NCBI GenBank assembly: GCA_000018565.1
Contig: CP000875.1
Span: forward strand, 313,199 to 377,198
Reading direction: 5' to 3'
Origin: Herpetosiphon aurantiacus DSM 785
Lineage (GTDB): Bacteria; Chloroflexota; Chloroflexia; Chloroflexales; Herpetosiphonaceae
Length of the DNA stretch: 64,000 nucleotides
Shown here: piece after piece, positions 8,226-56,432 of the stretch
How positions within the stretch are numbered: position 1 is the first letter of the stretch
Layout: the number at the start of each line of letters is the position of its first letter
Program-made: the position numbers and the translations under genes
Notes under the pieces: generated by a model
The model's input: the letters and a program-made list of their open reading frames with translations, nothing else
Database searches by the model: none
What the model was told of the DNA's origin: nothing

Positions 8226-8921
8226 CTAGACAGCTGTCCCAAAGATCGCTCCAACGCCAGCCGTTAATGCCATCGCAAGCGCACCCCAAAACGCCACCCG
8301 CATGGCACCGACAATAATGGACGAACCACCGGTATAGGCAGCCAATATTCCCAGCAGCGTGAGGAATATGAGTGAGGTTCCCGTTACCAAAACAACGAGA
8401 TAGGAATTAGCCGCAAGCACGGCGGTCATCAGCGGGAGTATCGCGCCAACGGCAAAGGCAGCCGCCGACGCAAGCGCTGCTTGGATGGGACGGGCACTCA
8501 TGGTTTCGGAGATCCCAAGTTCATCACGGGCGTGGGCCGCGAGTGCATCCTTCAGCATCAATTGCTCGGCGACTTGCTCAGCGAGGGATGCGTCAAGGCC
8601 ACGGCGACCATAGATGGCTGCCAGTTCCGCACGTTCGGCGTGGGCATCCACGGCGAGTTCCATGCGCTCACGGTCAATATCCGCTCGTTCCGTATCTGCC
8701 TGGGAACTGACCGATACATATTCGCCTGCGGCCATGGACATTGCCCCTGCAACCAAGCCAGCAATGCCGGCCACGACCACCGACTGATGGGATGCATTTG
8801 ATGCGGCCATCCCAACCACCAGACTGGCAGTTGAGACAATCCCATCGTTTGCGCCTAAGACTGATGCACGCAGCCAGCCGATATGCTGGGTTCGATGCTG
8901 TTCTCGATGTGACGTGACCAT
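8226..8921 (-). CDS. VIT1/CCC1 family iron/manganese transporter
   Basis: It has the LGANDGIVSTASLVVGMAAS signature. It has an N-terminal ferritin-like (Er/DUF125-like) part and a C-terminal TM part. An AAGGAG RBS precedes it. Confidence 0.75.
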   Translation of the reverse strand: MVTSHREQHRTQHIGWLRASVLGANDGIVSTASLVVGMAASNASHQSVVVAGIAGLVAGAMSMAAGEYVSVSSQADTERADIDRERMELAVDAHAERAELAAIYGRRGLDASLAEQVAEQLMLKDALAAHARDELGISETMSARPIQAALASAAAFAVGAILPLMTAVLAANSYLVVLVTGTSLIFLTLLGILAAYTGGSSIIVGAMRVAFWGALAMALTAGVGAIFGTAV

Positions 8922-21458: not shown

Positions 21459-22358
21459 ATGCAACGATTGTGGAATATGCTGTTAACGGCGATTGCTCCA
21501 ATTTTGTGGGGCACAACCTATGTCATTACCACCGAGTGGCTGCCAGCCAACCGTCCGTTGTTGGTCGGCGTAATGCGGGCCTTGCCGATTGGCTTGATCT
21601 TTTTGGCCTTGGGGCGGCAATTGCCCAAAGGCATTTGGTGGTGGCGCTCGTTGGTGCTGGGCGCGTTGAATATTGGCTTCTTCTTCCCCTTATTATTTAT
21701 TGCCGCCTACCGCTTGCCTGGTGGTATCGCCGCTACGTTGGGCGCATTGCAACCATTTATCGTGGCGTTTTGGGGCTGGGTGGTGCTCAAAGAGCGAGTC
21801 ACTTCGCGCTTGCTGTTGATGGCGGGTTTAGGTGTGCTTGGGGTTGGCATGATGCTGCTCAATCCACAGGCTCAACTTGATGCTTGGGGCATGCTGGCAG
21901 CTTTTGGTGGCGCGATGCTCTATGGCGTGGGCATTACATTAAACAAACATTGGGGACGACCAGTGCCCTTATTGACCTATACCGCTTGGCAATTGGTGGT
22001 TGGCGGCCTGATGATTGTGCCAATTGCCCTGTTGATTGAAGGCCTACCGCCCGCCTTTACAACCAGCAATTGGCTGGGTTTTGGCTTGATTGGCCTCGTC
22101 AACACGGGCGTGGCTTATCTCTTTTGGTTTCGCGGCATCGAGCGCCTAAAAACATCCACCATGTCGTTTTTGATTTTGCTTAGCCCAGTTTCAGCGACCG
22201 TGCTAGGCTGGCTGGTACTCGATCAACGCCTGAGTTGGTTGCAAATGCTGGGCGCTTTGGTGGTACTGGCTAGCATCGTATTAAGCCAACTGCCGAGCCG
22301 CCAGCCCACCCCGCGTTTGCAGGTGCAACCAGCAGCTGACTCTGCCCTCACCCCCTAG
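21459..22358 (+). CDS. EamA/DMT-superfamily transporter
   Basis: It has 10 predicted TM segments with two EamA halves. Confidence 0.8.
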   Translation: MQRLWNMLLTAIAPILWGTTYVITTEWLPANRPLLVGVMRALPIGLIFLALGRQLPKGIWWWRSLVLGALNIGFFFPLLFIAAYRLPGGIAATLGALQPFIVAFWGWVVLKERVTSRLLLMAGLGVLGVGMMLLNPQAQLDAWGMLAAFGGAMLYGVGITLNKHWGRPVPLLTYTAWQLVVGGLMIVPIALLIEGLPPAFTTSNWLGFGLIGLVNTGVAYLFWFRGIERLKTSTMSFLILLSPVSATVLGWLVLDQRLSWLQMLGALVVLASIVLSQLPSRQPTPRLQVQPAADSALTP

Positions 22359-22414
22359 CCCCCTAGCCCGCCTAGCGAGCGAGGGGGAATCCAACGGTCA
22401 TGAAGCTTGGAATA

Positions 22415-22457
22415 CCCCTCGCCCGCCGACGTGGGAGAGGGGATGGGCGTGAGGGAA
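22415..22457. repeat. GC-rich hairpin repeat R2 copy (CCCCTCGCCCGCC-N4-TGGGAGAGGGG-N-TGGG(C/G)GTGAGGGAA)
   Basis: It lies between convergent genes. Related copies are at 23773-23817 and 56034-56077. Confidence 0.7.
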
Positions 22458-23636: not shown

Positions 23637-23772
23637 CAGGGGCAGTTATTCATCCACCGATGAACCACGGGATTGGTGGTTCAAACCGGAAAACGGTTAA
23701 AAACCTACCCTTGTAAGCACCCCCTGACCCCCTCTCCCGCCCGCGAGGCGAGAGGGAACCGCTCCTGGAGTG

Positions 23773-23817
23773 CTCCCCTCGCCCGCCGCCGTGGGAGAGG
23801 GGCTGGGGGTGAGGGAA
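23773..23817. repeat. R2 hairpin repeat copy
   Basis: The sequence is CTCCCCTCGCCCGCCGCCGTGGGAGAGGGGCTGGGGGTGAGGGAA. Confidence 0.7.
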
Positions 23818-23963
23818 AGAACCATGGTTGCCAACCTCATGAACCATTACATATACCGACTTGAGCGCCATTGGGGTCTGTCGCAAGACCTACTTGCTCG
23901 TGCCATTTCTGGTACAATAGACGCACAGTTGAGCGACTAGATCAGAACATAGAGCTAGTTTCT

Positions 23964-26462
23964 ATGTTCTTTGTTTTGATGGTTATGCAAGCAAATCAGC
24001 ATATTATTGAACTTGGCAAAACCTTGGCTGCCGAAGAAAAGGCCGGCTGCGACGATACTGCAACCGACCACGGCATCAGCATATTTCTGCGCGAATGGCA
24101 GGCCCAACATCCCCAAGCCTTGCATGAACCAGTTGTGCAGGGCGTGCTTGATGCCCTCGATGGCTACTCCGAGTTGAGCCATGCCGAACGTGAGGCTCGT
24201 TTGAGTGTTGCGCTTGATCGGCTGCGCAATTTGTTTCGCAAACAGCCCAAAGCTCCGGCTGAACCCGTGGGTGCTGTGCCGCCAATCGATACCTTGCTGA
24301 AAACTTTGCAAGGCATTGGCCCAAGTACTGCCCGTTCATTTGCCAAACTCGGGGTGCATACGCTCGAAGATTTGCTCTATCACGTGCCGCATCGCTACGA
24401 CGATTTCAGCAAACGCAAGCAGATTTGTGATTTGGTGGTGGGCGAAACTGATACGGTGATTGTAACCGTCGATGCAATTAAAAGCTTCAATGCCAAAGGT
24501 CGCCAAGGTGTGGAAATTACCGTCGGCGACGATACTGGCGTGCTCAAGGCTTCGTGGTTTCGTGGTACGTGGATGGCCAAGCAGTTTCGCGAAGGCATGC
24601 GGATTGTGCTCAGTGGCAAAGTCAGCATGTTCCGCGAAATGAAATCGATGAGCAACCCACAGTGGGAGCCATTTGTTGAAGACGATTTGGTGCATACAGG
24701 TCGCCTTGTGCCCGTCCACCCACTGACCAAAGGCTTGCAAGATCGCAATGCCCGTCAAGTTATTAAACGGGTCGTTGATGCAGTGACCCCAACCTTGTCC
24801 GACCCGTTGCCGATTGAACTCCGCGAACGAGCTGGATTATTGCCCTTGGGCGTTGCCATCAGCCAAATACATTTCCCTGATAGTTGGGCAATGGTGCAAC
24901 GCGCCCGCCAACGCTTGGGCTTTGATGAATTTTTGTACATTCAATTGGGCGTATTACAGCGCAAACGGCTGTATCAAGGCGTGCAAGGCCAGCCAATTGC
25001 CTTTAATCAAGCGATTCATGATGCCTACCTGAGCAGTTTGCCCTTTGCTTTGACCAACGCCCAAACTCGGACATTTAACGAAATTTGCCGTGATTTGGAG
25101 CGGCCAGTGCCCATGACACGGCTGGTGCAGGGCGATGTTGGTTCGGGCAAAACGGCGGTGGCGGCGGCAGCTTTGGTGCAGGCAGTCGCAGCGGGTTTTC
25201 AAGGGGCGATGATGGCTCCGACTGAAATTTTGGCCGAGCAACATTATCGCGGGCTGAAAAAACTGCTTGCCAATGTTAAAATTCCAGGCCGTGAAACCAA
25301 TAGCAATGGCGATTGGCGCGATGAACTTGATCAAGAAAAACGTAATCGCCTCGCCCAAATTAAGCAATTATTGATGCTGGCCGACGAGCCAGAACCCGAG
25401 CCAGGTGGCATTCGGGTTGCGCTGCTAACTGGTAGCCTCAAAGCTCGCCAACGCCGCGAAGCGCTCAAACTGATCGCCGATGGCGAAGTTGATATCATCA
25501 TTGGAACCCATGCCCTGATTCAAGCCAATGTTGATTATCAAGCGCTCGGCTTGGCAGTGGTCGATGAGCAACATCGCTTTGGGGTTGAGCAGCGCGAGGC
25601 ACTCAAACGCAAGGGCTTCAATCCACATCTTTTGGTGATGACCGCCACGCCAATTCCGCGCTCGTTGGCCTTGACGATTTACGGCGATCTTGATGTTTCA
25701 GTGATCGACGAGCGCCCGCCAGGCCGCCAGCCAATTCGCACCAAATGGATCAGCTCGGGCGAACGCAGCAAAGCCTACAAACATATGCGCAAGGAGATTG
25801 CGGCTGGCCGTCAAGCCTTTGTAATTTGCCCGTTAGTTGAGGAAAGCGAAAAACTCGAAGATGTAAAATCGGCGATTGTTGAGCAAGAGCATTTGCAACA
25901 CGAGATTTTCCCTGATCTCAAGGTAGGCTTGATTCATGGCCGTATGACTTCGAGCGAAAAAGACACAATTATGGCCCAGTTTCGCGACCGCGAATTCGAT
26001 ATTTTGGTGGCGACGGCGGTGGTTGAAGTTGGGATTGATATTCCCAATGCCACGACGATTATGATCGAAGGTGCTGAGCGTTTTGGTTTGGCCCAATTGC
26101 ACCAATTTCGCGGGCGGGTTGGGCGGGGCAGCCATCAATCGTTCTGCGTTTTGGTCAGCGATAAAGAAGATAACGATGTAACCGTGGCGCGGCTTTCGTC
26201 GATGGAAGAGAGCGAAGATGGCTTCCGTTTGGCTGAAATTGACCTTGAATTGCGTGGGCCAGGTGAGTTTTTTGGTATTCGCCAGAGCGGCACGCCTGAT
26301 CTTAAAGTTGCCCAGTTGACCGATACGCGCTTGCTGCATGCGGCGCGGATTGAAGCTGAGCGAATATTGAAACTTGATCCTGAATTGGAATTACCTGAAC
26401 ATGCCAAAGTCCGCGAAAAACTCCAAGCTTTTTGGGCGGGCATGGAAACTCAAAGCAACTAA
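23964..26462 (+). CDS. recG: ATP-dependent DNA helicase RecG
   Basis: It has the DEQHRFGV motif, a Walker A (GDVGSGKT), and a wedge or N-terminal domain. The start is uncertain. It could be 23871, 23964, 23977 or 23985. Confidence 0.85.
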   Translation: MFFVLMVMQANQHIIELGKTLAAEEKAGCDDTATDHGISIFLREWQAQHPQALHEPVVQGVLDALDGYSELSHAEREARLSVALDRLRNLFRKQPKAPAEPVGAVPPIDTLLKTLQGIGPSTARSFAKLGVHTLEDLLYHVPHRYDDFSKRKQICDLVVGETDTVIVTVDAIKSFNAKGRQGVEITVGDDTGVLKASWFRGTWMAKQFREGMRIVLSGKVSMFREMKSMSNPQWEPFVEDDLVHTGRLVPVHPLTKGLQDRNARQVIKRVVDAVTPTLSDPLPIELRERAGLLPLGVAISQIHFPDSWAMVQRARQRLGFDEFLYIQLGVLQRKRLYQGVQGQPIAFNQAIHDAYLSSLPFALTNAQTRTFNEICRDLERPVPMTRLVQGDVGSGKTAVAAAALVQAVAAGFQGAMMAPTEILAEQHYRGLKKLLANVKIPGRETNSNGDWRDELDQEKRNRLAQIKQLLMLADEPEPEPGGIRVALLTGSLKARQRREALKLIADGEVDIIIGTHALIQANVDYQALGLAVVDEQHRFGVEQREALKRKGFNPHLLVMTATPIPRSLALTIYGDLDVSVIDERPPGRQPIRTKWISSGERSKAYKHMRKEIAAGRQAFVICPLVEESEKLEDVKSAIVEQEHLQHEIFPDLKVGLIHGRMTSSEKDTIMAQFRDREFDILVATAVVEVGIDIPNATTIMIEGAERFGLAQLHQFRGRVGRGSHQSFCVLVSDKEDNDVTVARLSSMEESEDGFRLAEIDLELRGPGEFFGIRQSGTPDLKVAQLTDTRLLHAARIEAERILKLDPELELPEHAKVREKLQAFWAGMETQSN

Positions 26463-26510
26463 TTTGTGGCGAATTTGCAACATTGCGTGACTAAAACACG
26501 AAAAACCCTC

Positions 26511-26539
26511 TTGACAGAGAGTGATTGCTGCGGTACTAT
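26511..26539 (+). promoter_or_regulatory. Sigma70-like promoter TTGACA-N17-TACTAT
   Basis: It is a consensus -35 with a 17-nt spacer. It drives the short transcript described next. Confidence 0.4.
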
Positions 26540-26545
26540 ATATTC

Positions 26546-26640
26546 AAACCTTCTCCTCTCTCTTCTCTCCCACAAGCGGCTCCATTATGCGAGCCGTTTG
26601 TGGTTTTAGAACATTTTTTTATTTTACCTCAATAGCAAAC
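26546..26640 (+). ncRNA. Candidate small RNA: CU-rich 5' tract + strong intrinsic terminator
   Basis: The transcript begins with CCUUCUCCUCUCUCUUCUCUCCC. It is followed by a 13-bp hairpin (CCACAAGCGGCUC / GAGCCGUUUGUGG) and a U-run. It has no ORF with an RBS. Confidence 0.3.
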
Positions 26641-26795
26641 CCATTCTCACTTTGCCCTAAAAAATTTTTACTTTGTATCCAACGGTAGCGAAACTGCAAC
26701 GTTCTGCCACTTTAAGAAGTGGTATGCTCAAAGCCTAAATCAACATCAAGAGGGTTTCGATTGTTTGCTCATTTGAGCACAGCGCTCAGCTAGGC

Positions 26796-26824
26796 TTGCC
26801 GTTCGGCCACGACGGCGCTATAAT
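26796..26824 (+). promoter_or_regulatory. Promoter TTGCCG-N17-TATAAT for the EF-G paralog
   Basis: A consensus -10 lies 66 nt upstream of an AAGGAGG RBS. Confidence 0.45.
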
Positions 26825-26889
26825 CGACAAACAATCAACCTCACATTGATTCCGTCGTCGTTTCAAGTAACTCCAAAGGAGGAGTCTCT

Positions 26890-29001
26890 ATGAAAGAGTA
26901 CGGTCCGGATCGTATCCACACAATTGGCCTCTTTGGCCATGGCGGTGCTGGCAAAACTACCCTCGCTGAAGCCCTACTTTTCGCCAGCAAAGCTCTCCCA
27001 CGGATGGGTCGCGTCGAAGATGGCTCGACGGTTAGCGATTACGACCCCGATGAAGTCAAGCGCCATGCCTCAATTAACCTCTCGGTGATTCCGATCGAAT
27101 GGAATGGCAACAAGTTCAATTTTATCGATGTGCCTGGCTATGCCGATTTCCGGGGTGAAGCCGCTGCGGCGCTCCGTGTGATCGATGGGATGGTGCTGGT
27201 GCTCGATGCGGCTGGCGGGGTGGAAGTTGGCGCAGAATTACTTTGGCAAATGGCTCGTGAGGCGAATATCCCACGGGTCGTTTTTATTAACAAGCTTGAT
27301 CGCGAAAATGCCAATTTCCAGCGGACTGTCGAACAAGCCAAGGGTCTGTTGAGCGAGGCAATCACGCCTGTGCATATGCCAATCGGCAGCGGAGCCAACT
27401 TCAAGGGCATCGTGTCGCTACGCAAACGCAAAGCATGGCTGCATCACAATGGCAAAGATGGCGCGTATGAAATTGCCGAAATTCCCGCCGAAATTCGCCA
27501 AGAAGCGCTGCAAATGGCCGATGGCTTGATCGAAAAAATCGCCATGACCAACGACCACCTGATCGAAGAATATTTAGAAGGTGGAGCCGATGCCCTGAGT
27601 GCCGAGGAAATTCGCCAAGGCTTTCAAGCGGCAATCAATGCGCATACGATTATGCCGCTGTTTATTGGCTCGGCCACCACGCTTTCGGGCATTCCCCAGT
27701 TGCTCGATGGGATTCTCGATGCGATTCCTTCGGCGGCCAATCGCTTGACGACCGCCCACGATTTGCGCAACGATGATGATTATTTCCTTGAAGGCAAGGC
27801 TGATGAGCCACTGAGCGCTTTAGTGTTCAAAACCTTGGTTGACCAATATGTTGGGCGCTTGAGTTTCTTCCGCGTGTTTAGCGGCGAAATTCATTCCAAC
27901 TCAGTGGTGCGTAATGCTCGTACAGGCCGCGAAGAGCGGATTGGCCAGCTCTTTCAGATGCGCGGCAAGGAGCAAACGCCTGTCTCCTCGGTGAGCGCTG
28001 GCGATTTGGGAGCTGTGGCCAAACTCGCTGATACGCTCAGCGGCGACACGCTTTACAATCCTGAAAACCCTTTACGTTTACGCAGTGTTAGCTACCCCGA
28101 AGCTGCTTTTACCGCCAAAGTTACGCCTCATTCCAAAAACGACCTCGATAAGTTGGGCAATGCATTGCATCGGATCGTCGAAGAAGACCCCACCTTGCAC
28201 CTCGGACGCGACATCCAAACTGGCGAAACCTTGCTTGCTGGTTTGAGCGAAACCCACCTGAATTTTGTGGCCGAGCGAGTCAAACGCAAATTCGATGTGC
28301 ATTTTGATTTGGCAATACCTAGCGTGCCCTATCGCGAACGCATCAGCAGCACCGCTACTGCCACCTATCGCCACAAAAAACAAACAGGTGGGGCTGGGCA
28401 ATTTGCCGAAATTTCGCTGCGGCTCGAACCATTGCCAACTGACCCGAATCGTGCTGATCCATTGGAATTTGTCAGCGAGATTGTGGGGGGCGTGGTTTCA
28501 CGGTCGTTCTGGCCAGCGATTGAAAAGGGTATCCGTGAATCGATGGCCTTGGGCGTGCTTTCTGGCCATCCAGTGATCGACGTGAAAGCAGCGATTTACG
28601 ATGGCAAGGAACATCCCGTCGATAGCAAAGAAATTGCCTTCAAAACCGCTGGTAAATTTGCCTTCCGCGAGGCCGCGCGTAAAGCCAACCCAGTTATTAT
28701 CGAGCCAATTTATGCCTTGAAAATCAATGTGCCCGATGAATATGTTGGCGATATTCTAAGCGATTTGAATGGCAACAAACGTGGGCGAGTGCAAGGTATG
28801 GAGCAAATCGGCCATAGTCGCACCTTGATCACAGCCCACGTGCCATTAGCTGAATGCCAGCGTTATGCTACCGATTTGCGCTCAATTACCCAAGGCCGTG
28901 GCGATTTTGTGATGCGGCTTGATCACTATGATGATGTGCCACATAGCGTTGCCCAAACGATCATTGCCAACTCCAAACAGCAACACGACGATGATGAGTA
29001 G
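26890..29001 (+). CDS. Elongation factor G family GTPase (EF-G paralog)
   Basis: It has the G1 motif (GHGGAGKTT), DVPG, NKLD, and the five-domain EF-G length. Confidence 0.85.
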   Translation: MKEYGPDRIHTIGLFGHGGAGKTTLAEALLFASKALPRMGRVEDGSTVSDYDPDEVKRHASINLSVIPIEWNGNKFNFIDVPGYADFRGEAAAALRVIDGMVLVLDAAGGVEVGAELLWQMAREANIPRVVFINKLDRENANFQRTVEQAKGLLSEAITPVHMPIGSGANFKGIVSLRKRKAWLHHNGKDGAYEIAEIPAEIRQEALQMADGLIEKIAMTNDHLIEEYLEGGADALSAEEIRQGFQAAINAHTIMPLFIGSATTLSGIPQLLDGILDAIPSAANRLTTAHDLRNDDDYFLEGKADEPLSALVFKTLVDQYVGRLSFFRVFSGEIHSNSVVRNARTGREERIGQLFQMRGKEQTPVSSVSAGDLGAVAKLADTLSGDTLYNPENPLRLRSVSYPEAAFTAKVTPHSKNDLDKLGNALHRIVEEDPTLHLGRDIQTGETLLAGLSETHLNFVAERVKRKFDVHFDLAIPSVPYRERISSTATATYRHKKQTGGAGQFAEISLRLEPLPTDPNRADPLEFVSEIVGGVVSRSFWPAIEKGIRESMALGVLSGHPVIDVKAAIYDGKEHPVDSKEIAFKTAGKFAFREAARKANPVIIEPIYALKINVPDEYVGDILSDLNGNKRGRVQGMEQIGHSRTLITAHVPLAECQRYATDLRSITQGRGDFVMRLDHYDDVPHSVAQTIIANSKQQHDDDE

Positions 29002-56033: not shown

Positions 56034-56077
56034 GCTCCCCTCGCCCGCCACAGTGAGAGGGGTTGGGGGTGAGGGAA
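56034..56077. repeat. R2 hairpin repeat copy
   Basis: The sequence is CTCCCCTCGCCCGCCACAGTGAGAGGGGTTGGGGGTGAGGGAA. Confidence 0.7.
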
Positions 56078-56081
56078 AAGC

Positions 56082-56432
56082 CTAGGCTTTACGCCGTTTT
56101 GGCCGGACTAAATCATAGGAATGGGCGATCAGCGCCAAACATTCCTCATCGGGCACGCTGCCATCAAGCACAATTGTGTTCCAATGGCGCTTATTTAAAT
56201 GATAGCCAGCCGTAATCGCTGGATATTGTTCGCGCAACATCTCAGCCCGATCAGGATCGCATTTCAGGCTAATTTGGGCTGGCTCACTGCGAACAAGTAG
56301 GGCAAACATTTTGCCGCGCTCATCGCCAATTTTAAACACCAAGGGTTCAATCCCAAATGGATAATCTTCAATTACGTCGTCAAGGCTCAGGCAATAGCTG
56401 CGAGCTTGGGCATAATCAACGTGGTTGCTCAT
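56082..56432 (-). CDS. MmcQ/YjbR-family protein
   Basis: It has the family motif pattern (DYAQARSYCLSL...YPFGIEPLVFKIG...HLNKRHWNTI). The start is the ATG at 56432, which has an AAGGAG RBS. Confidence 0.6.
   Translation of the reverse strand: MSNHVDYAQARSYCLSLDDVIEDYPFGIEPLVFKIGDERGKMFALLVRSEPAQISLKCDPDRAEMLREQYPAITAGYHLNKRHWNTIVLDGSVPDEECLALIAHSYDLVRPKRRKA

Follow-up and report, generated by a model that had tools for sequence, protein, structure and literature searches.

A multicopy pyrimidine-tailed small RNA predicted in the recG/EF-G spacer of Herpetosiphon, with relatives in Herpetosiphonaceae and their prophages

What is encoded in the spacer between recG and the gene for an EF-G-type GTPase in Herpetosiphon? 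We analysed a 64-kb stretch of DNA (the window) in which recG (23871-26462, + strand) and the EF-G-type gene (26890-29001, + strand) enclose this spacer. The source is Herpetosiphon DNA: the RecG of the window is 95-97% identical to those of H. geysericola, H. llansteffanensis, H. giganteus, H. sp. NSE202 and a Chloroflexia metagenome-assembled genome (MAG). An earlier sequence-only reading of the window had proposed that the spacer holds a small non-coding RNA (sRNA) with its own promoter and terminator. It had correctly placed the spacer between two same-strand genes, giving its length as 428 bp (427 nt in our coordinates). Our comparisons make it very probable that the element is an independently transcribed small-RNA gene, and they strongly support its assignment to an undescribed family of a known kind, a multicopy pyrimidine-seed sRNA of Herpetosiphonaceae and their prophages.

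Read along the + strand, the element is made of TTGACA, 17 nt, TACTAT, six bases, AAACC beginning at 26546, a pyrimidine run, a stem-loop and TTTT. Its parts are the following.

26491-26510, + strand: A-rich block CTAAAACACGAAAAACCCTC, 5' of the -35 hexamer, nearly invariant in six orthologues; possibly an UP-like element or a regulator site.
26511-26516, + strand: sRNA -35 hexamer TTGACA, from a consensus scan; invariant in the six orthologues.
26534-26539, + strand: sRNA -10 hexamer TACTAT, after a 17-nt spacer; hexamer invariant in the six orthologues.
26546-26607, + strand: predicted sRNA of ~62 nt, AAACCUUCUCCUCUCUCUUCUCUCCCACAAGCGGCUCCAUUAUGCGAGCCGUUUGUGGUUUU, placed by the limits of homology between paralogues, by covariance-model scores and by six-species invariance; both ends are predicted.
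26546-26569, + strand: unpaired 5' tail AAACCUUCUCCUCUCUCUUCUCUC, the putative seed, AAA plus 21 pyrimidines; 24 nt, with an ensemble unpaired probability of 1.00 at each.
26570-26603, + strand: terminator hairpin with a 13-bp stem, an 8-nt loop and one G.U pair.
26604-26609, + strand: short U tail and conserved unit end UUUUAG, with UUUU at 26604-26607; UUU(U)A(A)G is found in nearly all members of the family and is followed by complete divergence.

The near-consensus promoter TTGACA-N17-TACTAT and the long CU-rich tract are both present as had been described. The promoter matches the consensus at 10 of 12 positions, and between 23000 and 30000 the sole other site with such a score is the promoter of the EF-G gene. 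The full pyrimidine run CCTTCTCCTCTCTCTTCTCTCCC extends over 26549-26571 and is the longest purine or pyrimidine run in the window; the longest such run in 200 shuffles, 22 nt, is shorter than the tract. No second copy of the run occurs in the window with up to 3 mismatches allowed (0 expected). The first 30 nt of the RNA strand are without G, and GGA is absent from the loop.

The tail is followed by a hairpin with arms CCACAAGCGGCUC (26570-26582) and GAGCCGUUUGUGG (26591-26603) around the loop CAUUAUGC (CATTATGC). Its minimum free energy is -25.2 kcal/mol (z = -8.5), and none of 200 shuffles folds as well. The 13-bp near-perfect hairpin of the sequence-only reading is therefore confirmed, with its single G.U pair and, as described below, with covariation. 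Both marks of a terminator, a stable stem and a U run, are there.

The proposed extent of the RNA needs revision at both ends. Conservation in the family runs from (C)AAACC (26545/26546) to GUGGUUU(U)AG, and these limits give an RNA of ~62 nt instead of the 85-95 nt suggested before. Its 5' end, earlier put at CCUUC, moves likewise to the point where the conservation begins. At the window locus the UUUU is followed by AGAACA and then by a second T run (26614-26625), which is variable among orthologues, absent in paralogues and outside the conserved unit.

The predicted RNA contains no conserved open reading frame (ORF). The ORFs that overlap it all begin 5' of the predicted start of transcription, within the promoter or ahead of it, and, as had been noted, they lack a ribosome-binding site (RBS). 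The AUG in the loop is missing in four members of the family (L062, L099, L106 and L144). With neither a conserved ORF nor a conserved AUG, a small-protein gene is ruled out.

Is the element maintained in relatives? We aligned the recG/EF-G spacer from six Herpetosiphon genomes and found a run of 66 invariant columns at 26541-26606, with conservation falling directly after GUGGUUU. In the same genomes 44% of the columns at four-fold sites of EF-G are invariant (pairwise identity 63-85%), and the longest invariant run within the EF-G coding sequence is 41 nt. Because a 66-nt invariant run stands against 44% invariant four-fold sites, the alignment indicates that the element is under strong purifying selection, in a pattern that fits a promoter followed by its transcript. 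Among the orthologues ~5 positions of the promoter spacer differ, with the length fixed at 17 nt, and the DNA between the recG stop codon and the A-rich block is divergent. Two of the species carry a 180-bp GC-rich insertion between recG and the element, and the element is undisturbed. The sequence-only reading had named absence or lack of conservation in relatives as evidence that would count against it; we find instead invariance in six species and copies throughout the family Herpetosiphonaceae.

Besides the window locus we found ~20 further copies. A scan of metagenomes with the 20-mer TTCTCCTCTCTCTTCTCTCC returned 97 loci, 12 of them with the full anatomy. Most of the 97 are eukaryote-like CT microsatellites or unrelated repeats scoring at most 28 bits with the covariance model, and true members score 84-96 bits. 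Half of the full-anatomy loci (6/12) come from large contigs of ~50% GC in one Herpetosiphon-like metagenome, Ga0209460, so that this metagenome holds at least that many copies. One of the metagenome loci, L087, is the orthologue of the window locus, and its 524-kb contig also carries a paralogue, L095, at a distance of 55 kb. Eight more copies were found by scanning viral contigs, all in predicted proviruses or phages. In BLAST comparisons between loci the similarity is confined to 62-66 nt, equivalent to window positions 26544/26545-26606/26609. The neighbouring genes differ at each locus, and in L130 and L062 the downstream gene is convergent.

Other searches mark the edges of the family. 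A gapped pattern allowing any 4-22 nt inside the tract yielded no variant member in viral contigs; a hairpin-based pattern yielded one there, L229, with the tail AUAUCCUCCUCUCUCUUCACUCCCAC. No copy was found in PLSDB plasmids or GenBank phages. A weak match, L260 (E = 0.08), was not accepted as a member, and a CU tract in a distant MAG (L003:1801-1821) is unrelated, lying upstream of a promoter and having no hairpin.

As a separate observation, eight metagenome loci (L066, L070, L073, L120, L123, L132, L133 and L138, from Ga0307978, Ga0307981 and Ga0307933) carry the same 20-mer in the predicted hairpin loop of a repeated element of ~130 nt, TCGAGCACGAAGTGCTCGACACCA-[TTCTCCTCTCTCTTCTCTCC]-GGTGTCGGCACGTAGTGCATTATTATC. 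The left flanks of this element vary, and its score with the sRNA model does not exceed 20 bits. The shared 20-mer probably matches by chance, in a CT-rich repeat that belongs to another organism.

Would the copies be transcribed on their own? In all 18 distinct loci a TAnnnT hexamer ends 6-7 nt before AAACC, usually together with a good -35 hexamer or a TG extension. Promoter scores reach at least 8/12 in 17 of the 18 loci (1.9% of random positions) and at least 10/12 in 10 of them (0.04% of random positions). These promoters are non-homologous between copies, and the sequence 5' of the unit boundary is unrelated. This placement argues strongly that every copy would be transcribed independently, and the constant position of the -10 hexamer points to a start at the first A of AAACC. 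The unit thus has what is expected of a trans-acting sRNA, a promoter of its own positioned to start the conserved sequence.

The hairpin is supported by covariation. In an alignment of 21 distinct members, 99.3% of the stem cells are standard pairs and compensatory changes occur at 7 of the 13 pairs, for example CCACUAACCGCCC/GGGCGGUUAGUGG and CCAUCAGCGGUCC/GGACCGUUGAUGG; none of 500 shuffles reaches such values. When the stem register is slid, ~40% of positions pair, and RNAalifold predicts the same stem.

The same data bear on the strand. The G.U pair is kept in 19 of the 21 members, other G.U variants exist too, and the minus strand would have C.A mismatches at these places. Because of these G.U pairs, because the U run 3' of the stem exists on the + strand only, and because a promoter-like site on the minus strand (26650-26621) is not conserved in the orthologues, we assign the predicted RNA to the + strand. 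A GA-rich minus-strand RNA resembling a CsrA sponge, which would depend on that promoter-like site and would carry the mismatches, is ruled out. Multiple GGA motifs in loops, typical of CsrB-type sponges, are not found either.

Could the element nonetheless serve only its own operon, as a terminator of recG or as a leader or attenuator of EF-G, with a promoter that matches by chance? It does lie between two same-strand genes, and read-through from recG would stop at its hairpin, which is the only + strand terminator after recG found in our scan. Nevertheless, the same unit is present at more than 15 unrelated loci with different neighbours, some with a convergent downstream gene, and where recG and the element are parted by the 180-bp insertion the element is intact. 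The hexamers of the sRNA promoter are under selection, and the EF-G gene has a conserved promoter of its own 190 nt further on, so the sRNA promoter is dispensable for the downstream gene, as the sequence-only reading had held.

26796-26824, + strand: promoter of the EF-G-like gene, TTGCCG-N17-TATAAT, 10/12 in the consensus scan, separate from the sRNA.

Since the neighbouring genes change from copy to copy, the sRNA is not a leader; there is neither a constant downstream gene in the same orientation nor a lack of a separate promoter, and the family contexts rule out both an EF-G leader or attenuator and a mere recG terminator. We regard any purely local role as scarcely credible. The proposal of an independent small non-coding RNA, on the other hand, has passed each comparative test that we could apply: invariance, promoters, covariation and unrelated neighbours.

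The family was recognised through the pyrimidine tract, and gmk offers a route that does not depend on it. In locus L110 the sRNA follows gmk, and we searched for homologues of the L110 Gmk. Homologues with 81-92% identity led to four contigs, all with the sRNA just 3' of gmk, at 84-92 bits. One of these contigs comes from the MAG of Herpetosiphonaceae bacterium OHK22 (GCA_013538855.1), which has a RecG with only 73% identity to that of the window. The gmk-linked copies have an identical 5' stretch of 28 nt, CAAACCUUCUCCUCUCUCUUCUCUCCCA, and stems that are altered compensatorily. This stretch is the same in 20 of the 21 aligned members, including the four found through gmk. The putative seed is both accessible and conserved, and 28 nt that are predicted to be single-stranded are essentially fixed across the family Herpetosiphonaceae.

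At the gmk loci of the OHK22-like lineage (L285-L289 and L110) the sRNA lies 60-160 nt 3' of gmk, with a divergent NFACT-family gene upstream. Next to the recG/EF-G spacer, gmk thus provides a further conserved core position for the sRNA. No copy is found at the gmk loci, the only loci considered here, of a Herpetosiphon sp. MAG, Chloroflexus aggregans, a Roseiflexaceae MAG and Chloroflexia SDU3-3.

Why do so many copies reside in phages? One sits in a 52-kb phage-like contig, L142 (= L100), which encodes an amidase and the small and large terminase subunits and has its sRNA copy just after the integrase module. A related contig, L141, shares with it a 308-aa protein (79.6% identity) and encodes a tyrosine integrase (PF00589, 1.8e-22) and a DUF4145 protein, followed by the sRNA. 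Seen in detail, each of the two (L141:11913-13612, with the locus turned so that the sRNA is on the + strand, and L142:5918-8193) has a full copy with its own promoter directly 3' of the tyrosine-integrase module; in L142 the amidase and terminase genes follow. Such a position is typical of a phage attachment site (attP). In two related proviruses of one isolate genome (L143 and L145), the sRNA has its 3' end towards the distal side of a tail module that encodes a tape-measure protein (PHROG, 1e-16). Both settings, beside an integrase and beyond the distal genes of the tail, are usual places for the ends of prophages.

Three copies within 10 kb are found in a 79-kb provirus, IMGVR_UViG_2508501111_000003: L229 (23672-23741, - strand), L144 (26092-26159, - strand) and L147 (33947-34015, + strand). 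Two of them sit at the outer ends of an inverted duplication of ~1.8 kb. The third, L229, is the sole member with an altered tail, and this tail contains a true CCUCC.

A partial copy with the hairpin only, matching model positions 22-73 with 38 bits, is found in L130 (4536-4586), where an aldo-keto-reductase-like gene has its 3' end. It is without the CU tail and lies 2.1 kb downstream of the full copy in the same orientation, with genes for an AraC-like regulator and a reductase-like protein between the two. Either the decay of a paralogue, since reused as a terminator, or a duplication of the att type could account for it.

Taken together, these contexts raise the possibility that the 65-bp unit is primarily a DNA element, an attachment site of phages or islands spread by temperate phages, with its sequence conserved for recognition by integrase and the RNA secondary. 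The eight copies in proviral or phage contigs, the positions next to integrases and at the distal tail-module ends, the 3'-half copy in L130 and the clustered copies with their inverted duplication would all fit. The window copy and the gmk-linked copies are, however, syntenic core loci, and no integrase is found near them. Nor does this view explain the properly spaced promoter at 18 loci, the compensatory changes in the stem, or the invariance of a 5' tail instead of a crossover core, and no complete attL/attR pair was seen in the extracted loci, which are partial stretches of contigs. Use as an attachment site is moreover compatible with a functional RNA gene, and normally depends on one. 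We therefore consider a DNA element as the main identity of the unit very unlikely, and suggest that the sRNA gene may serve phages as an attachment site as well as cargo. Genes for tRNAs, tmRNA and sRNAs used as attachment sites, and prophage sRNAs such as DicF (PMC5069750), offer parallels, in that small RNA genes lie by integrases or prophage ends and travel as phage cargo; unlike DicF, the Herpetosiphon sRNA also has conserved copies in the core chromosome, and duplication of an att site is not seen in the extracted loci.

Does the RNA belong to a described family? The 4227 models of Rfam 15 gave no match in the whole window at the gathering threshold of each family. With E-values up to 10, the region 26350-26950 has no + strand match, and the element overlaps only weak minus-strand matches of 13-15 bits, with gathering scores of 45-100. 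A search of the window for tRNA and tmRNA genes found none, and in the literature on sRNAs of Herpetosiphon or Chloroflexi we found nothing.

Multicopy sRNAs with CU-rich or anti-Shine-Dalgarno motifs that block RBSs are nonetheless well established, in LhrC1-5 (PMC4132741) and the cuckoo RNAs (PMC4615179). LhrC1-5 of Listeria monocytogenes likewise have several homologous copies per genome, are poor in G and end in a terminator hairpin; their single-stranded CU-rich (UCCC) sites bind a G-rich region just 5' of the start codon and block translation (PMC4132741). The Herpetosiphon sRNA also has a UCCC, within CUCUCCCAC. There is, however, no similarity in sequence or to a model, the lack of an Rfam match extending to LhrC if Rfam holds it. 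In LhrC, three short motifs are spread over loops and a linker, and the Herpetosiphon sRNA has one continuous 24-nt tail at the 5' end; where LhrC shows UCCC in a loop, the linker and the terminator loop, we find a single one at the junction of tail and stem and none in the loop. The LhrC copies answer to one regulator (LisRK), whereas the Herpetosiphon copies have unrelated promoters, belong to a different phylum and are in part phage-borne.

The cuckoo RNAs of Alphaproteobacteria (RSs0680/SmelA075 group) are also multicopy, with up to 9 copies in some genomes spread over replicons, and they combine an invariant, anti-Shine-Dalgarno-like pyrimidine motif with stems that vary by compensatory mutation (PMC4615179). 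Their motif CCUCCUCCC stands in each of 2-4 hairpin loops, whereas the Herpetosiphon tail is linear and 5', lacks CCUCC, precedes a single hairpin and has no model match. The canonical copies do not contain the cuckoo motif, and only the variant L229 has CCUCCUCU. Finally, the C-rich seed sRNAs of Firmicutes (RsaE/RoxS, RNAIII, SprD and FsrA; PMC4132741) also pair with Shine-Dalgarno sequences through unpaired C/U-rich motifs; they differ in being single-copy, longer and multi-hairpin, with motifs of 4-6 nt, and they have no homology to the Herpetosiphon sRNA.

How might the RNA act? Because its design matches that of the multicopy sRNAs with CU-rich or anti-Shine-Dalgarno motifs, we favour pairing in trans with purine-rich initiation regions. 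The sRNA would start at A26546 from its own sigma-70-type promoter and end at the covarying hairpin and short U tail. The window copy is the core-chromosome member of a multicopy family whose other copies reside in Herpetosiphonaceae and their prophages. Acting in trans, the pyrimidine tail would form duplexes with mRNAs at stretches rich in purines, chiefly at RBSs of the GGAG/GAGG type, and these duplexes would block binding of the 30S subunit and lower translation. Copies with different promoters could feed different signals, or simply dosage, into one shared seed.

Within the tail, CUCCU is complementary to AGGAG, and UCUCCC to GGGAGA. Predicted duplexes with AAGGAGGU, with GGAGAG and with the RBS of EF-G reach -8 to -12 kcal/mol, and those with GGAG-type sites overall range from -6 to -12 kcal/mol. 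The translation-repressing function that the sequence-only reading attached to its complementarity with GGAGG-type sites stays conjectural, no specific target having been found in the window and the related loci. On balance we think it probable that the locus is a gene for a ~62-nt sRNA acting by pairing with purine-rich RBSs, and for the pairing with RBSs taken by itself our confidence falls a little short of even.

Several points weigh against this proposal. Transcription itself, like the exact ends, the targets and the mode of action, is something we infer from sequence alone. The U run right after the stem is kept in the family at a length of 3-5 nt, which is weak for a canonical intrinsic terminator and makes the efficiency of termination uncertain. 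In a scan of duplex energies that covered the window and related loci amounting to ~250 kb, extended complementarity was not seen at any start codon. Since a pyrimidine tract of whatever sequence pairs with every Shine-Dalgarno site, the complementarity is unspecific, and the exact CCUCC is absent from the canonical copies. In addition, identity over 28 single-stranded nt exceeds the 7-10 nt that a seed needs and hints at a partner contacted over the full length, whether a protein, a long purine tract or DNA.

This last point leads to the idea of a decoy, in which the G-free, unstructured 24-nt CU tail would bind with high affinity a protein specific for pyrimidine-rich single strands (S1, cold-shock proteins, the KH-domain proteins KhpA/B, Hfq or Rho) that is thereby titrated or recruited. 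The long identity beyond what a short seed needs, the gene copies of Ga0209460, whose number would suit stoichiometric titration, and the failure to find a specific mRNA target in the window and the related loci would be accounted for. Known sponges such as CsrB and 6S are longer, however, and have repeated structured motifs, whereas a tail followed by a terminator is the classic layout of a base-pairing sRNA. Long low-complexity seeds also occur in true pairing sRNAs, such as the GU-rich R1 of GcvB. With its conserved single-stranded seed of ~30 nt and many targets, GcvB of Enterobacteria provides a precedent for conservation beyond 7-10 nt; it differs from the Herpetosiphon sRNA in its G/U-rich seed directed at C/A-rich enhancers, its single copy, its dependence on Hfq and its length of ~200 nt. 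We consider the decoy unlikely.

Another partner is suggested by the duplex energies, namely the G-rich arm (GUGGGAGAGGGGCUGGGGGUGAGGGA) of palindromes resembling repetitive extragenic palindromes (REP), in intergenic or untranslated regions, where pairing would alter transcript stability or termination. These are the strongest predicted partners, at -33 to -39 kcal/mol compared to -8 to -12 for Shine-Dalgarno sites, and they include a perfect 9-nt match of GUGGGAGAG to CUCUCCCAC. The window has several copies of them, and H. giganteus and sp. NSE202 each have one directly 5' of the sRNA promoter. Yet a probe of pure pyrimidines favours any G-rich sequence, as G pairs with both C and U, which makes the ranking partly trivial, and in the RNA of the repeat the G arm is already paired with its own C arm. 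A role of this kind seems to us distinctly unlikely.

The REP-like palindromes are located at 22345-22457, 23717-23817 and 56053-56088 of the window and at L005:8590-8760 and L006:8590-8765. They are GC-rich, with a C-rich arm CCCTCACCCCCAGCCCCTCTCCCAC and a G-rich arm GTGGGAGAGGGGCTGGGGGTGAGGG, and the C arm has CTCTCCCAC in common with the sRNA tail. Tandem heptamers (GGGATGA)n in Herpetosiphon intergenic DNA (L002:11113-11170 and, on the minus strand, L005 ~8530-8565) also appeared as G-rich matches in the duplex scan.

A bolder version joins the full-length partner to the phage contexts. Here the RNA would be a global regulator disseminated by phages, its whole homopyrimidine tail of 24-28 nt acting on one deeply conserved partner, and phages that carry the gene and integrate next to or into it would set the copy number of a regulator of host translation. 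The partner could be a protein that binds pyrimidine tracts (S1, Csp or KhpA/B), or else RNA or DNA with a purine tract, perhaps in a triplex. We put this forward as a speculation with a small chance of being right.

Around the sRNA, the spacer and its flanks have further features. From the EF-G promoter through the 5' untranslated region to the ATG, the six Herpetosiphon orthologues hardly differ. A second conserved block occupies 26676-26745, CCAACGGTAGCGAAACTG..AAC.TTCTG.CA.TT...TGnTATGCTCAAAGCCTAAA, and includes TGnTATGCT, which resembles an extended -10 element; the block may represent a distal promoter of EF-G, a site for a regulator or a further small transcript. The variable segment 3' of this block can form a hairpin in each species, for which RNAalifold gives no covariation support. 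The recG ORF encodes 863 aa from a TTG start, with the RecG wedge domain from residue 144 onward. Either the protein is therefore extended at its N-terminus by ~140 residues, or its true start lies further on; the extra region is matched in related species too (tblastn from residue 1-9).

In Rfam 15 and the literature that we searched, no regulatory sRNA from Herpetosiphon or other Chloroflexi was found described, and the family would open a first way into the post-transcriptional control of these predatory, filamentous bacteria. Three properties lift it beyond a routine sRNA: family-wide identity over 28 predicted single-stranded nt, at least six differently promoted copies in one metagenome, and its recurrence in prophages, beside integrase and tail modules. 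If the tail binds a protein, the RNA would be a new kind of pyrimidine-tract sponge. If it acts broadly on GGAG-type RBSs, it would constitute a brake on translation that is controlled by gene dosage and open to exploitation by phages.

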